From contig MGIR01000002.1 in assembly GCA_001793855.1 (NCBI GenBank), positions 9,617-49,333 of the forward strand: a stretch of DNA of 39,717 nucleotides. The letters are read 5' to 3'. Position 1 is the first letter of the stretch. Every line of letters starts with the position of its first letter. The translations under genes were made by a program, and so were the position numbers. The notes below the pieces were generated by a model that saw only the letters and a program-made list of their open reading frames with translations, was not told the DNA's origin and did not search any database. This DNA is from Candidatus Wolfebacteria bacterium RIFCSPLOWO2_01_FULL_45_19 (GTDB lineage: Bacteria; Patescibacteriota; Minisyncoccia; UBA6257; GWB1-45-9). Shown here in pieces: positions 34,608 to 39,583 of this stretch.

Positions 34608-34654
34608 ACATTTTATCGTAGCACACAATTTTGTGTGGCGGTTGTGGAAAACTT

Positions 34655-34928
34655 TAGGAGCGCAGGATACGAACCAGAATCAATTGAGCGGAGCGAATTT
34701 GGACAAGATTCAAGGCGCGAGGAGCGATGCGTATCTTTAGATACGTGAGCGACGAGCAACGCAGAAGATTGGTCAAATTCGTCCGCCCGAAGGGAAGCTC
34801 GGAAATGGCCAATTTCTTCGTTGCTCCTCCTCGGCGTATCGCAGAGGATACGCTTTCGTCGTCGCGCCTCGAACTCGTCTCATTTCCGAGCTTCTCAAGC
34901 TGACTCTGGTTCGTATTCTGCGCTCCTA
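34655..34928. repeat. 274-bp inverted-repeat (MITE/REP-doublet-like) element
   Basis: 28-bp terminal arms 34655-34682 / 34901-34928 (26/28); two inverted homologous internal units; partial second copy at 39130-39194. Confidence 0.85.
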
Positions 34929-37015
34929 TCCAACGCTTTGATTGAAAGCGAGAGTTTGCCGTCTTCCATTCTGATTATTTTCGCGCGCACGGATTGGCCG
35001 AGTTTTAGCACGTCTGAGACATTTTTAACAAACCCATTTTTTAGTTCGGATACATGTATCATCCCGTCTTTATTGAGCCCTATGTCAACTATCGCTCCGA
35101 AATCCATTATTCTTGAAACCGTTCCTTCAACTATGTCGCCGACGCGATATTCTTTAACTATTGATTTTATGATTTCAACGGCTTTTTCGCATGCGCTCAT
35201 GTCGGTTCCGGAAACAAAAACCATGCCGTCTTCTTCAATGTCTATGCTTGCAACCCCGGTATCGGCAACTATGCCGTTTATTATTTTGCCCCCAGGACCT
35301 ATTACTTCTCCGATTTTCTTGGGGTCAATATTGAGCGTCAGAATTTTCGGAGCGTAAGGCGAAAGTTCCGGGCGCGGCGAAGCAAGGACCGCGTTGACGG
35401 TTTGAAGTATATGAAGCCGCGCTTTTTTCGCTTGTTCCAGGACTTTTTCAAGCATTTCAATCGTCACTCCCTCTATTTTTACGTCCATTTGAATCGCGGT
35501 TACGCCGTCGGCCGTCCCGGCTACTTTGAAATCCATATCGCCATGATGGTCTTCCGGGCCTTGTATGTCTGTTAGAATTTTATATTTTTGTTCTCCGAGA
35601 ATTAATCCCATCGCTATTCCGGCCGCGGGTTTTTTAAGCGGTACCCCGGCGTCCATAAGAGAAAGAGAGCTGGCGCAAACCGTTGCCATTGAAGATGAGC
35701 CGTTTGAAGAAAGTATTTCCGACACGACGCGTATAGTGTATGGAAATTTTTCTTGCGCGGGAATAAGCGGTCTGAGCGCTTTTTCCGCCAGGGCGCCGTG
35801 GCCGATGTCTCTTCTACCCGGTCCGCGGAACGAGCCGGTTTCGCCAACCGAATATTTTGGAAAATTGTAATGCAACATAAAACGTCTATTGTCGGTTGTT
35901 TCCATTGTTTCAACAAGCTGCGCCGCTCCGGGAGGGCCGAGAGTAGTCATCGCGAGAGCTTGAGTGTTTCCGCGAATAAACAAAGCCGAGCCGTGCGTTC
36001 TTTTGAAAAGACCGGCTTCCGCCGTAAGGGCTCTCACCTCGTCCAATTTTCGTCCGTCCGGCCTCGCTTCCTCTTCCAGTATTTTTTTGTGGAGTAGTTC
36101 GTTTATCTCCTCTTCAAAAAGTTCATCAACCGCCTGTAGTTGCTTTTCCGAAAATTCGCGGCCATTCAAAAGGTCTATGAGCTCATGTTTCAGAGTGTTG
36201 ATTTTGCTGTGCTGTTCGTGGTCTTTCGGGGCATAAATAACTTCTTCAAGCTTGTCGGCCAGAAATTCTTTCACTGCTTTCTTGGTTTCATGATCCGGTT
36301 CAACAAGATAAACATCCGTTTTTTCTTTTCCTATTTCTTCGGCTATCTTAGTTTGAAACTCAATAAGTTTTTTTATTTCTTTTTGCGAGGCTTTAAAGGC
36401 GTCAATGATTTCGCCGTGTTCGGCTTCGTCTCCGGAAAGCTCAAGCATGTTTATTTTATTTTTCAGCCCGGAAACGAACGCCTCAAGTTTTGCTTCGGAT
36501 TTTTTCAACTCGCCAATCTTTGGATTGATGGCAATATCGCTGTTAATTTTGGCAACTTTCACTCCCGCAACCGGACCACTCCATGGAATATCAGAAATGG
36601 CGAGGGCGGTTGATGCGCCAATTAAGGCCGGAAAATCCGGGTCGTTTTCTTCATCATACGCAAGAACTGTTACCGCCACATGAACGTCACGGCGCATGCG
36701 ATGGTCAAAAAGCGGCCTAATGGTTCTGTCTATCAAGCGTCCGGATAGAGTCGCTTCATCGGACGGTCTGCCTTCGCGGCGCACAAATCGACTGCCTAGT
36801 ATTTTTCCGACGGCGTAGAATTTCTCTTCATAATCAACCGTGAGCGGAAAAAAATCGGTATCACGGTCTTTAACTCCCATCACCGCGGTTACAAGAATCG
36901 CCGTATCCCCATATCGCGCTAAAACCGCCGCGTTTGCGCGCCCGGCCAGTTCCGATATTTCCAATTCAAGCGGCCTACCCGCGACATCTATTGAATATTG
37001 TTTACGATTTAACAT
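34895..37015 (-). CDS. pnp: Polyribonucleotide nucleotidyltransferase
   Basis: FFPLTVDY, RLIDRTIRPLF, RPDGR, HGSALF.RG.TQ, SNGSSSMA, GDMDFKVAGT, KH and S1 domains. Confidence 0.98.
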   Translation of the reverse strand: MLNRKQYSIDVAGRPLELEISELAGRANAAVLARYGDTAILVTAVMGVKDRDTDFFPLTVDYEEKFYAVGKILGSRFVRREGRPSDEATLSGRLIDRTIRPLFDHRMRRDVHVAVTVLAYDEENDPDFPALIGASTALAISDIPWSGPVAGVKVAKINSDIAINPKIGELKKSEAKLEAFVSGLKNKINMLELSGDEAEHGEIIDAFKASQKEIKKLIEFQTKIAEEIGKEKTDVYLVEPDHETKKAVKEFLADKLEEVIYAPKDHEQHSKINTLKHELIDLLNGREFSEKQLQAVDELFEEEINELLHKKILEEEARPDGRKLDEVRALTAEAGLFKRTHGSALFIRGNTQALAMTTLGPPGAAQLVETMETTDNRRFMLHYNFPKYSVGETGSFRGPGRRDIGHGALAEKALRPLIPAQEKFPYTIRVVSEILSSNGSSSMATVCASSLSLMDAGVPLKKPAAGIAMGLILGEQKYKILTDIQGPEDHHGDMDFKVAGTADGVTAIQMDVKIEGVTIEMLEKVLEQAKKARLHILQTVNAVLASPRPELSPYAPKILTLNIDPKKIGEVIGPGGKIINGIVADTGVASIDIEEDGMVFVSGTDMSACEKAVEIIKSIVKEYRVGDIVEGTVSRIMDFGAIVDIGLNKDGMIHVSELKNGFVKNVSDVLKLGQSVRAKIIRMEDGKLSLSIKALDRSAEYEPESA

Positions 37016-37070: not shown

Positions 37071-37619
37071 TTATTTTTTTATAATTATCTTCGGAATTTC
37101 CTCCAAATTAATAAAAGTATCGGCCTCTTCTTTTAATTTTCCAGAAGCGCTTCTTCCAAACGCAGCGACTTCAACTTGCCTGCCCAATCCCCATTTTAGA
37201 TATTCAACCAGAGGAACAAAATCGCCGTCTCCGGTAACAAGAATTATGACGTCAAGAAAATCTGCCATTCGTATGGCATCAACCGCCATGCCCACGTCCC
37301 AGTCGGCTTTTTTCATTCCGCCCGGATAAATTTGGAGGTCTTTTATTCTAAGTTCGAGGCCGGCGTTTTCAAGCGCCTCAAAAAAGGCGGCTTCGCGACC
37401 CTGCGGAACCACGCTGACAACTCCGTCAATCCCCTCGCTCTTTACTACGTATGCTACGGCGCGGATTAATTTCCTGCCGCCAATCAGCTCTTTGATGAGT
37501 TCGCGATAATTAACGCGCCCCTGATATAAATGTTTTGCGGAATGATAAAGATTTTGTATGTCTATAAAAATACCGACACGCTGTTCTTCTTTATGTTGCC
37601 GCGATTTATTTGCTGACAT
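37071..37619 (-). CDS. NYN domain protein (LabA/DUF88, PIN-like)
   Basis: FIDIQNLY, KADWDVGMAVD, TGDGDFVPLV. Confidence 0.9.
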   Translation of the reverse strand: MSANKSRQHKEEQRVGIFIDIQNLYHSAKHLYQGRVNYRELIKELIGGRKLIRAVAYVVKSEGIDGVVSVVPQGREAAFFEALENAGLELRIKDLQIYPGGMKKADWDVGMAVDAIRMADFLDVIILVTGDGDFVPLVEYLKWGLGRQVEVAAFGRSASGKLKEEADTFINLEEIPKIIIKK

Positions 37620-37621
37620 TT

Positions 37622-37888
37622 TTATTTTTTCAACCCAAGACTTCTTACCAGAGTATTATACGCTTTTGGATTTTTTTTTGACAAATAGTCAAGCAGTTTT
37701 TTTCTTTTGCTGACCATTTTTAGAAGACCGCGCCTGGAATGGTTGTCCTTTTTATTTTTTTTGAGATGGCTTGCGAGTTCTTCTATGCGCCGGCCAAGAA
37801 TGGAAATTTGTACTTCCGGAGAGCCGGTGTCCGTTTCGTGCCTTTGGTGCGCTTTCAGTATATTAAGTTTTTTTCTAGTAGTAAGCAT
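37622..37888 (-). CDS. rpsO: 30S ribosomal protein S15
   Basis: Start MLTTRKK; DTGSPEVQI, HLKKNKKDNHSRRGLLKMV. Confidence 0.97.
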   Translation of the reverse strand: MLTTRKKLNILKAHQRHETDTGSPEVQISILGRRIEELASHLKKNKKDNHSRRGLLKMVSKRKKLLDYLSKKNPKAYNTLVRSLGLKK

Positions 37889-37897
37889 GATTAAAAA

Positions 37898-37926
37898 AGT
37901 ATAATAAATTCTTATAAAAAAGTCAA
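37898..37926 (-). promoter_or_regulatory. rpsO promoter
   Basis: TTGACT (37926-37921), 17 nt, TATACT (37903-37898). Confidence 0.7.
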
Positions 37927-37947
37927 CTTTTTGACTCGTCGCTTGCA

Positions 37948-37988
37948 TGCTCTTCAGAACCGGGTGTCTGCTCCAGCTGAAGATACCC
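37948..37988 (-). repeat. Partial copy (3' third) of the yraN-flanking structured element
   Basis: Minus strand GGGTATCTT-CAGCTGGAG-CAGACACCC-GGTTCTGAAGAGCA. Confidence 0.7.
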
Positions 37989-38016
37989 AATAGTTTTTCG
38001 CGGGTCCTGCCGCATC

Positions 38017-38158
38017 GCGCCGCCTGTATTCCTCTCGGAACCGAGGTCGGCTTACTCCAGCGGTAAGCCGCCTCTACGCTCTCAGCGAAAAACTTTTGCT
38101 TCGCAAAAGACCAAGCTTTTTCGCTTCCGAGAGTTTCCTCAAGAAACACAGGCGGCGC
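38017..38158 (-). repeat. Structured element, copy X1
   Basis: Closing stem GCGCCGCCTGT/ACAGGCGGCGC; junction motifs shared with 38177-38315. Confidence 0.85.
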
Positions 38159-38176
38159 TTATATTAGTTAAACCGA

Positions 38177-38315
38177 ACCCGTCCTGCTCTGAAGAAGCTC
38201 TCGGAGCTCCGATGGCTTGGTCTCCCCGACCGCGGTCGGGGAGCATCGGAGCGAGAGTGCAGCGGTCGTCTGCCGCCGGAGCAGACGAACCGCGGTTCTG
38301 AAGAGTAGGACGGGT
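38177..38315 (+). repeat. Structured element, copy Y
   Basis: Closing stem ACCCGTCCTGCTCT/AGAGTAGGACGGGT; same architecture as X1 with different stems. Confidence 0.85.
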
Positions 38316-38409
38316 GAGGTGCTACTTAGAGGAATACAGGCGACGCGCTAATGAGCGAACTTATATTTTCAACCTGCGCAGGCCTATGTAAAGAGTGCGG
38401 GTATGCAAG

Positions 38410-38781
38410 TTAAATATTTTCGTAATGTCTAATTGTATCATCTTTTTCTGAAATTGTCAAGGTGACTAGATCACATTTCCAACCCTTGTCGTTTATAAGC
38501 TCTTCGTTGTTTTGGGCGTAAAGCGTGGAAGTTTTTTTAAACTTTTTCATTTTTGCCGCAGTCATTTGTTCTTCCGGCAATAACTCTTCGGCTCCATTGC
38601 CGAATTGCCGCATTGTTTTTACTTCAACAAAAGTTAGAATTCCTTCCGGTGATATAGCCACAATATCCAGTTCCCCCCACTTTTGTCTATAGTTTCGTTC
38701 TATTATTTTATATCCTTTGTTTTTCAGATATTCGCAGGCCTTATCTTCACCGTATGTACCGAGGTCGGATTTATAAGTCAT
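38410..38781 (-). CDS. yraN: YraN/UPF0102 family PD-(D/E)XK nuclease
   Basis: LGTYGEDKACEYL..KGYKIIERNY..KWGELDIVA...FVEVK. Confidence 0.93.
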   Translation of the reverse strand: MTYKSDLGTYGEDKACEYLKNKGYKIIERNYRQKWGELDIVAISPEGILTFVEVKTMRQFGNGAEELLPEEQMTAAKMKKFKKTSTLYAQNNEELINDKGWKCDLVTLTISEKDDTIRHYENI

Positions 38782-38882
38782 ATGTTTAGAATTTAGAATA
38801 TAGAATTTAGAATTTGGGGTCAACATTTGTGTGTACGCTGTGTAAAAATTATACACGTGTTACGCAAAAAAGTTGTGTAAGA

Positions 38883-38963
38883 TGTTTGTCGTGAAACACC
38901 CGTAACAACAAAAAATGGCAATTCTTGAGCAAAATGGTTATACAAAGTGTTTGTCGTGAAACA
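38883..38963. other. Two identical parS-like 16-mers
   Basis: TGTTTGTCGTGAAACA at 38883-38898 and 38948-38963; 14/16 to TGTTTCACGTGAAACA. Confidence 0.6.
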
Positions 38964-39090
38964 TTGAAAACACCAAAAAATCGGGAAAGCTATATTTTAC
39001 GCGGTTACCCGCTTGTTAAACATTTTGCCATGTTTCACACCTTTTTACACATTCTGTCAACTTCATCTCCCAACCTCACCCGTCCTCATA

Positions 39091-39251
39091 GCGCGCCGCC
39101 TGTATTCCTCCCGGAACCGAGGTCGGTATGAGCGCAGGATACGAACCAGAGTCAAGTTGAGAAGCTCGGAAATGAGGCGAGTTCAAGGCGCGACCTGCCT
39201 GCCGGCAGGCAGGCAGGCAGAGAGTTTCCTAAAGAAACACAGGCGGCGCGT
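39091..39251 (-). repeat. Structured element, copy X2, with core replaced by other repeats
   Basis: Ends nearly identical to X1; middle holds the pnp-element arm (39130-39194) and CCTGCCTGCCGGCAGGCAGG. Confidence 0.85.
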
Positions 39252-39471
39252 TGAGAGTGAGTGAGGTTGAAATGAGTACTGGCGCACGCTTCGTCTGATT
39301 TGGCGCACAGCGTGATAGTTATTGTCGCGGGATGCTTGTTTGTTCTCGCAGAACATTTCGGACTTAATGAGTTTGAGGTGAAACTCGCGGACGTAACGTT
39401 GTCCGCTATACTTGTATGCTATATGATTTTCCTTGCCTACAGAATTATTTTTCGACAAGGCCACAAACATT

Positions 39472-39511: not shown

Positions 39512-39583
39512 TGGGCGCTGAAGGGATCGAACCCTCGGCCTACTCGGTGTAAACGAGTCGCTCTACCACTGAGCTAAGCGCCC
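39512..39583 (-). tRNA. tRNA-Val(UAC), CCA not encoded
   Basis: GGGCGCT acceptor, TAGCTCAGTGGTAGAGC D arm, ACTCG-TTTACAC-CGAGT anticodon arm, GAGGGTTCGATCCCTT T arm. Confidence 0.97.

Follow-up and report, generated by a model that had tools for sequence, protein, structure and literature searches.

What are the folded repeats that surround yraN in the genome of Candidatus Wolfebacteria bacterium RIFCSPLOWO2_01_FULL_45_19, and do they belong to that gene? The question was raised by a stretch of 39,717 nucleotides (nt) of contig MGIR01000002.1 (positions 9,617 to 49,333; hereafter the window, a C2 stretch of the 588,889-bp genome that we call G000), in which an original prediction had described a family of covarying ~140-nt structured elements clustered on both sides of the gene for the YraN nuclease and had proposed that they might form a nuclease-associated repeat system. 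Here we describe this element family, which has a strongly covarying fold and a defined sense strand, is dispersed over many genomes and shows no linkage to yraN. Our favoured reading, which we hold at about even chances, is that its members are non-autonomous mobile structured repeats whose folded sense strand is recognised and propagated.

A covarying fold with a defined sense strand

The two complete copies of the window, X1 and Y (Table 1), had been predicted to align module for module; both lie where they had been placed, arranged head-to-head with 18 nt between their 5′ ends, and they share a three-way junction of 46 pairs. In X1, the closing helix P1 is formed by GCGCCGCC.../...GGCGGCGC, P2 consists of a G-N-A bulge, a 9-bp stem, a GCUUGGU bulge and an apical hairpin, and P3 carries a CGCUGGA loop together with an A bulge; Y additionally has GA...GA flanks outside P1. 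The minus strand of X1 folds with −79.2 kcal/mol (z −7.75) and the plus strand of Y with −92.9 kcal/mol (z −8.19), values that none of 200 shuffles reached in either case, and the opposite strands of both fold 9–10 kcal/mol worse. At a mean column identity of 76% in the pairwise alignment of X1 and Y, both sides have changed with pairing kept in 22 of the 46 pairs of their joint RNAalifold structure, as expected from the earlier observation that the stems differ yet stay paired.

This pattern holds in much wider sets of copies. We used two covariance models, R1, built from X1 and Y alone, and R2, built from 34 sequences. Alignment A, which combines the best match of each of 29 genomes with the G000 copies (40 rows, 39 of them distinct), has standard pairs in 96.0% of its 1661 pair cells and compensatory changes in 44 of the 46 pairs, with a covariation score of 0.80 compared with 0.21 after column shuffling and ~0.10 when the pairing partners were slid by 1–3 columns. 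Alignment B, made of 55 copies that R2 found in 40 fresh 20-kb stretches from nine other genomes, is 94.9% paired and compensatory in 45 of 46 pairs, and scores 0.91 compared with 0.24 when shuffled. Covariation in these larger alignments, on which the original prediction had staked the structure, thus stands far above the shuffled and slid controls. A model-free alignment of 18 diverse copies (MAFFT followed by RNAalifold) again gave P1 and P3; of its 33 predicted pairs, 28 are compensatory, and P2 was lost through misalignment of the variable tip.

The conserved letters lie at unpaired or junction positions, and the helix sequences are variable. Specifically, conservation is seen in GAA/UUC beside the tandem G·A pairs, in UCUCG-N-AG, the GCUUGGU bulge, CGAGAG..AG, the CCGCUGGAG loop, the A bulge and CGGUUC, and with UCUCGNAG the conserved unpaired or junction nucleotides number ~35. 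The conserved bulges and loops that had been listed from X1 and Y were borne out: the modules GA..GAA, CUCUC/GAGAG, the G-N-A bulge, GCUUGGU, CGCYGGA, the A bulge and GGUUC recur in the consensus of the 34 and in that of the 55 other-genome copies.

The family also has a defined sense strand. Model R2 scores X1 at 147.2 bits on the minus strand and 18.6 bits on the other, and Y at 128.7 bits compared with 16.6 bits antisense. Among paired cells, G-U exceeds A-C by 53:10 in 34 copies, by 98:34 in 55 copies and by 33:23 in 27 copies of genome G096. When 195 copies were sorted by context, G-U stood to A-C at 98:40 in antisense copies within 3′ untranslated regions (UTRs), at 125:32 in sense copies that lie downstream of genes and at 92:28 in all others, the difference between the first two being not significant (p 0.10). 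The wobble bias lies on the same strand whichever way the neighbours are transcribed, and therefore fits a single-stranded intermediate of the element itself, either RNA or single-stranded DNA (ssDNA), and not a read-through transcript. Covariation and sense-biased wobble pairs together support selection on a folded single strand, in agreement with what had been suggested for the window.

Distribution, movement and nesting

The family is undescribed. Searched against Rfam 15, the whole window gave a tRNA as its sole match at the gathering score, the region 37850-39350 gave only a chance U7 match at E ≤ 10 (E 9.2), and five further copy-bearing loci, one of them from Omnitrophota, gave tmRNA and tRNA only, in keeping with the initial impression that no known family was at hand. 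We found no description of the element in the titles and abstract beginnings of the literature searched, supplementary motif sets outside Rfam being beyond that scope, and the keyword-matched passages of PMC8632094 have no bearing on it.

The scan of this and other genomes that had been proposed gave 8 matches to R1 in G000 and, at E ≤ 0.01, matches in 44 of the 101 genomes of the order with G000 counted (43 of the 100 others). Occurrence within the order is patchy at the family level, from 0/4 to 4/4 genomes, and reaches its maximum of ~30 copies per genome in G096, where 29 strong copies lie on one 608-kb contig. An even sample across the phylum gave 10 of 151 genomes with a match (9 of the 150 others, E ≤ 1e-5). 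In 185,579 species genomes, a scan with an exact pattern located 77 loci, of which R2 confirmed 72; the remaining five (titled Nitrospira, Deltaproteobacteria, Obscuribacterales, Planctomycetota and Salipiger) are about as many as a hand estimate predicts by chance. By their record titles, the confirmed loci belong to many Patescibacteria lineages and to Candidatus Omnitrophota, and four Omnitrophota-titled genomes of 1.4–2.4 Mb, with some contigs of up to ~340 kb, hold 8, 11, 6 and 9 matches. The Omnitrophota copies form a subgroup of their own, with a median identity of 0.71 internally and 0.45–0.49 to the rest. Recent transfer between the phyla was considered and is not claimed, since records with no title beyond ‘uncultured bacterium’ take part in the best pairs between the groups (88%).

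Some of the small, tightly packed genomes of candidate-phyla-radiation bacteria and Omnitrophota still bear up to ~30 copies, or ~0.6% of the genome. With over 300 natural variants of the same fold, in which nearly every pair covaries, the element is an unusually well-supported new structural motif. The copies also have practical consequences: they break assemblies, several of them lying at contig ends, and spurious open reading frames (ORFs) that run through them are a risk for annotation. We additionally observed a divergent subfamily B of the same architecture, which has UCUCGCAG, GCAUGGU and ACGCUGGGG instead of UCUCGGAG, GCUUGGU and CCGCUGGAG and occurs at G000:C1:195480-195669 (minus strand), at C1:44933-45169 and in genome G001 at loci L069, L072-L077 and L079. 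Subfamily B is scored weakly by R1 and R2 (26–50 bits), and the family is therefore larger than the counts given here.

Closely related copies are found in unrelated surroundings. X1 has a 100% identical twin at G000:C1:195670-195811, the shared 142 nt being bounded by P1 and the flanks unrelated (blastn). In G001, whose coding DNA is 66–79% identical to that of G000, an X1-type copy is 94–97% identical and a Y-type copy 88% identical, and an orthologous intergenic site carries a ~300-nt composite insertion in G001 and is empty in G000. The composite of Y and an X 3′ fragment seen in the window is also present in G001. The 146 ORFs that neighbour 74 copies form no homologous group of more than 5 members, and those 5 come from 4 genomes and differ in arrangement.

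Copies are also nested within one another. Full copies sit flush between ...GGCCTCGCTC and ACCATGCCCGCTCGGCC... (GCTC / ACCATGC) in G001 (8 loci), G051, G058 and G032, and these flanks are the P2 arm of subfamily B (UCUCGCAG, GCAUGGU, CGAGAG, ACGCUGGGG) on the opposite strand. The nested module replaces the apical hairpin of the host module and is always antisense to it; in G000, the unfilled site carries a hairpin of 19 or 31 nt in that position. More generally, the flanks prolong P1 by at least 3 bp in 57 of 192 copies (~30%, compared with a chance expectation of ~5% by our own arithmetic), and ~35–40% of copies have GA before and GA after P1. Assemblies of four DNA runs at the window region gave short contigs broken at the repeats and no clean empty site. 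An autonomous or split copy was sought in a motif scan of G000, which gave no 5′ and 3′ halves parted by an ORF; the 10 kb that separate a Y 5′ fragment (C1:76327) from a Y 3′ fragment (C1:86472) are occupied by housekeeping genes (type IV pilus, fmt, S41 protease, L9). A 5′-truncation bias of the kind left by retrotransposition was also considered and set aside, as G000 has both 3′-only and 5′-only fragments with no clear bias.

The window itself contains complete, interrupted and decayed copies (Table 1). The interrupted copy that had been predicted on the other side of yraN, X4, is matched by the model and has ends 97% identical to those of X1 (repeat search), with its P2/P3 interior swapped for foreign repeat sequence and a GCCTGCC palindrome. 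This insert is 91% identical over 68 nt to G000:C2:44477-44544 (window 34861-34928) and 79% identical to C2:44271-44336 (blastn for both). The partial copy predicted at 37948-37988 is a decayed 3′ remnant that keeps the 3′ arm of P3, the loop GCUGGAG of that helix and CCCGGUUCUGAAGAG; it gives no match with the covariance model. A solo X-type 3′ end had been missed.

Table 1. Features in and around the repeat cluster, in window coordinates
Feature	Position	Strand	Basis or score
X1, complete three-way-junction copy	38017..38158	-	model R1 162.4 bits
Y, complete copy with X1 architecture and other stem sequences	38177..38315	+	model R1 158.5 bits
X4, interrupted copy with X-type 5′ and 3′ ends	39093..39249	-	model R1 41.8 bits, E 1.2e-8; model R2 31.1 bits
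Insert inside X4, copy of an arm of another, unrelated inverted-repeat element (~280 nt)	39127..39194		blastn
Outer helix around X4, left arm (CAACCTCAC...)	39071..39094		inverted repeat, 24 nt, 75% complementary
Outer helix around X4, right arm	39246..39269		pairs with 39071-39094
Decayed remnant, 3′ ~55 nt of a Y-like copy	37938..37996	-	alignment to the 3′ parts of Y and X1; inverted-repeat pair
Solo X-type 3′ end (GAGGAATACAGGCGACGC and GCTA flank)	38329..38350	+	inverted repeats vs 39089-39110 and 38016-35
yraN (UPF0102 / NERD-like nuclease fold), neighbouring housekeeping gene	38410..38781	-	Pfam PF02021, E 1.3e-20
rpsO (ribosomal protein S15), downstream of X1 on the minus strand	37622..37888	-	Pfam PF00312, E 2.5e-32
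tRNA; the repeat cluster and yraN lie between rpsO and this gene	39512-39583	-	Rfam

Other repeats were noticed in the same region. The second element, ~280 nt long and unrelated, lies at window 34650-34930 at the 3′ end of pnp and is bounded by inverted repeats of ~35 nt (GGAGCGCAGGATACGAACCAGA... / ...TCTGGTTCGTATTCTGCGCTCC), the right arm of which extends over the final codons and stop codon of the pnp ORF (34895-37015, minus strand), and copies of its arm occur inside X4 and at G000:C9:9005-9033. A short recurrent motif, GATGCGGCAGGACCCGCGAAAAA or its complement, is found at window 37988-38016, G000:C7:24711-24735 and C1:44970-44995; several X-type copies have it beside their 3′ end, and it is present, too, within a degenerate shell at C1:44933-45169. 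A 53-nt direct repeat (75% identity, 65 nt apart, window 38864-38981) lies upstream of yraN, between yraN and X4.

Placement and competing readings

Placement relative to genes depends on the orientation of the copy. In a set of ~180 copies, 51 of 109 3′ ends are no more than 30 nt away from the stop codon of a convergent gene, compared with 9 of 89 5′ ends that are this close to a stop codon, with median distances to the stop of 38 nt for the 3′ end and 125 nt for the 5′ end (Mann–Whitney p 2.9e-6). On the strand of the gene, an antisense copy starts almost at the stop codon, and an ordinary terminator sometimes follows further on. Sense copies come after a terminator-like hairpin in 32 of 92 cases (crude detector), and two that were read by eye lie ahead of a good −35/−10 pair of the next gene. 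Either insertion is polar relative to the ends of genes, or selection acts against sense copies that lie within mRNAs. Upstream of 190 copies, −10-like hexamers show no positional peak (101 sense vs 112 antisense hits). T-runs after the 3′ end and A-runs before the 5′ end occur in 16 and 21 of 192 copies, respectively, and a T-rich stretch directly follows 26 of the 114 copies that are antisense to a convergent gene, on the strand of that gene. As a family, the copies thus do not show the combination of a G+C-rich hairpin with a U-tract on the transcribed strand that defines an intrinsic terminator. There being no positional −10 signal and no general T-run, most copies are therefore unlike stand-alone small-RNA genes.

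Some further features of placement were recorded. For 31 copies with a stop codon no more than 45 nt from the 3′ end, that codon is TAG in 16, TAA in 13 and TGA in 2, figures that stand without a comparison to background usage, and in several copies TAG lies within a recurring flank GAGUCC-CUA. A ~377-aa RVT_1 ORF at L089:9876-11009 (minus strand; equal to G030:C1) reads through a sense copy at L089:9914-10061, such that element sequence makes up its last ~60 codons and a normal terminator comes next; another reverse transcriptase gene (G041:C42:11372-11974) has a sense copy ~200 nt downstream. Both cases may be due to chance.

In the mechanism that we favour, the ~130–150-nt non-coding module folds on its sense strand into a long closing rod with tandem G·A interruptions, followed by a three-way junction with two arms. 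A trans-acting factor would recognise this folded strand, as ssDNA or RNA, and copy or move it, and mobility would thereby proceed via the folded single strand; only lineages in which the fold is kept would continue to multiply. New copies would land at transcription-unit boundaries and in hairpins already present, at their tips or centres, the apical P2 hairpin of other family members among them, which would explain the whole, nested and broken copies clustered around yraN. We read the family as a functional analogue of REP/ERIC/BOX-type elements that has spread within and between Patescibacteria and Omnitrophota genomes. If it is selfish, these lineages would contain a structure-recognising mobility mechanism with no known transposase attached.

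Several results weigh against such mobile repeats. Across the 101 genomes of the order we found no mobilising enzyme, in that none of PF01797, PF02021, PF04308 and PF00078 tracks the element. The Y1 transposase PF01797 occurs in 33 of the 101 genomes, 17 of 44 carriers and 16 of 57 non-carriers, and has no match in G096 (~30 copies), G001 (13) or G080 (11). Reverse transcriptase PF00078 occurs in 22 of 44 carriers and 21 of 57 non-carriers and was not found in G000 or G001. PF04308, present in 37 of 44 and 30 of 57, is weakly enriched among related genomes; it was not found in G080 (11 copies) or G028 (8 copies) and so is not required. In the flanks of 60 and of 192 copies we saw no target-site duplication and no common target word, and conserved terminal inverted repeats are absent, all 8 terminal P1 pairs varying with 4–6 pair types each. 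Orientation relative to GC skew is divided 51 to 39 over 90 copies of 11 genomes, with opposite signs between genomes; it is consistent with GC skew or with the local gene majority within some genomes, and a replication-strand rule considered because of the strong bias in G096 was not upheld over the 90 copies. The orientation not being uniform, a simple replication-coupled ssDNA model is therefore not supported. A scan of viral contigs with one exact pattern, which detects only that motif, gave no element. The pair counts of alignments A and B come from sequences fitted to the model's own structure. Finally, ~35 invariant unpaired nucleotides across two phyla exceed the known needs of REP or MITE elements and look more like a ribozyme or a protein-binding RNA, and diverged copies of the same genome are still ~95% paired, such that each copy could be individually selected, that is, functional.

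A partner gene was also sought by subtraction, comparing the copy-rich G096 together with G000 against G025, a genome of the same taxonomic family with no match (670 of 700 kb compared). This gave 43 ORFs present in G096 and G000 and not found in the compared part of G025. Pfam was run on 30 of the 43, three of the others spanning locus borders and ten lying in a 256–273 kb cluster outside the run; the matches are mostly metabolic enzymes, with no convincing candidate. The 43 include ribosomal proteins L20 and S20, and the list therefore holds false absences. A conserved protein of unknown function (L040:9827-10564) was discarded, as it occurs in only 4 of the 101 genomes, two of them without the element. 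Two genes close to copies in G096 may be mentioned: a PolX-type polymerase gene with a PHP domain (G096:C1:243954-245735) has a copy at a distance of 82 nt, and an RNase-H-like gene of PF04308 (G096:C1:206302-206784) has one at ~300 nt; both genes are present in G000 and were not found in copy-free G025.

Alternatively, the element could be a multi-copy functional non-coding RNA, such as a small ribozyme, a signal for RNA processing or an RNA to which a conserved protein binds, that is active in sense and selected copy by copy, with mobility secondary, as in group I/II introns or other mobile RNAs. We regard this as possible, though well short of even chances. The ~35 conserved junction, bulge and loop nucleotides combined with freely covarying helices in Patescibacteria and Omnitrophota, the ~3:1 excess of G-U on the sense strand and the ~95% pairing of old, diverged copies in one genome all speak for it, as does an about six-fold deficit of sense relative to antisense copies right behind a stop codon (9/89 vs 51/109), which is what would be expected if the sense RNA were cleaved or bound within an mRNA. 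However, −10-like hexamers show no upstream peak (101 vs 112), there is no general U-tract downstream (16/192), sense copies often lie behind a terminator and, in the two cases read by eye, before the next promoter, in spacers expected to be silent, and about half of the copies run antisense to the genes beside them. Gene neighbourhoods are not conserved, no Rfam ribozyme or other RNA family matches, and the element is absent from 57 of the 101 genomes of the order and is therefore not essential. A narrower form of the idea, to which we give only modest credence, is a new structured-RNA class: a ~140-nt three-way junction with an invariant core, found in Patescibacteria and Omnitrophota and biochemically active in sense as a small ORF-less mobile RNA or ssDNA module, with self-cleavage, nuclease recruitment or binding of tRNA 3′ ends via the bulged UGGU as possible activities. 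If so, the six-fold shortage of sense copies in 3′ UTRs would be the footprint of that activity, and an active sense RNA would in itself constitute a new RNA class. The same placement at transcription-unit boundaries can also be read as that of a host-serving 3′-UTR or intercistronic hairpin, a stabiliser of transcript ends or an unusual terminator in the manner of REP/BIME, multiplied by recombination with no dedicated mobility. Its fold is very stable, 52 of the 114 copies facing a convergent stop start within 30 nt of that stop with no terminator between, and 26 of the 114 are directly followed by a T-rich stretch on the strand of the gene. We nevertheless consider such a host hairpin improbable: the antisense strand is the one transcribed at these sites, yet wobble pairs there favour the sense strand (98:40), a terminator or stabiliser needs no conserved loops or bulges, T-runs are rare overall (16–27 of 192 copies) and many copies lie behind an ordinary terminator.

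A system centred on yraN, in which the PD-(D/E)XK nuclease would recognise, cleave or mobilise the folded repeats that flank it, as in REP/RAYT, is the least probable of the readings, and we give it hardly any weight. The cluster in the window is real, with three copies and two fragments less than 700 nt from yraN and a 22-nt inverted repeat (38329-38350 vs 39089-39110, 95% complementary) bracketing the gene, but the family is not confined to it, as the identical copy of X1 at C1:195670-195811 demonstrates, and the bracketing repeat arises simply because the solo X-type 3′ end and that of X4 face one another. In 86 of the 101 genomes of the order, PF02021 occurs as a single copy, and it is distributed independently of the element, occurring in 39 of 44 carriers and 47 of 57 non-carriers; five element-carrying genomes have no yraN match in the PF02021 search. 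The order-wide scan gave about 204 matches, 150 of them listed and 54 not in the comparison of distances to yraN. Among the 146 matches listed outside G000, only two, by eye, lie less than 500 nt from yraN (G028:C11 and G043:C18), giving no enrichment beside the gene, and a further listed copy, in G018:C3, is 1.2 kb away. In G096, the nearest of the 29 strong copies are at least 3.7 kb from yraN. Copies are scattered genome-wide without linkage to yraN, and the nuclease association therefore fails; the position of the cluster beside yraN appears coincidental. As to the surroundings of the cluster, a gene for an NYN-domain protein (predicted RNase) lies at window 37071-37619 (minus strand) between pnp and rpsO, and the cluster is surrounded by yraN and three RNA-metabolism genes (pnp, NYN, rpsO).

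Comparison with known systems

Among elements whose RNA or single strand is known to be folded, group II introns, the HEARO/omega RNAs of IscB/TnpB and retron non-coding RNAs accompany or enclose a protein gene. Like them, the element is structured, multi-copy and strongly covarying, and it appears to be mobile, but no copy encloses or regularly adjoins an ORF, reverse transcriptase genes do not track it and no Rfam model matches. PATE derived from IS200/IS605 are characterised by hairpins close to both ends, a fixed tetra- or pentanucleotide target 5′ of the left end and a strand bias that goes with replication; for the element, we observed no common target motif at either end and a GC-skew bias of 51:39 with opposite signs between genomes, and TnpA (PF01797) does not co-occur with it. 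Integron attC sites are single-strand-specific folded sites with free stems, conserved unpaired bases and geometry, and an apical structure that can grow large; the element likewise has a single-strand-specific fold with free stems, conserved unpaired bases and geometry, and a variable apical structure. However, attC sites are single imperfect hairpins with R and L boxes (GTTRRRY), in cassette arrays beside intI, whereas the element consensus has no R''/L''-L'/R' boxes and its copies are scattered singly, no search for intI having been made.

The ERIC/IRU, BOX, RUP, Correia (NEMIS) and MITE-like repeats are ~100–150 nt long, fold stably, are dispersed in transcribed and untranscribed spacers and have nested or interrupted variants, and the element is likewise a non-coding, stably folding module of such a size that is dispersed in spacers and has nested or interrupted variants. 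In families of the ERIC/BOX/RUP/Correia type, conserved terminal inverted repeats are found, usually together with a TA target duplication. In the element, the ends (P1) are instead the most variable part, no duplication is seen and it is the interior loops that are conserved; it thus falls outside the definition of a MITE.

REP units are simple palindromes of 20–40 nt with a conserved 5′ tetranucleotide, and RAYT proteins are the Y1 HUH transposases that partner REP/BIME in proteobacteria. The element differs in being a 130–150-nt three-way junction with ~35 conserved unpaired nucleotides rather than a 20–40-nt palindrome, and Y1_Tnp does not co-occur with it (17/44 vs 16/57; none found in G096). 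REP/BIME themselves are intergenic and multi-copy, often clustered or oppositely paired, located just after stop codons, and form a strand-specific hairpin in which structure is conserved over sequence. Of the REP/RAYT layout originally invoked for the window, the transposase side thus falls away and a loose functional likeness stays: the element, too, is intergenic and multi-copy, often occurs in clusters or opposed pairs, has a conserved strand-specific structure and tends toward stop codons.

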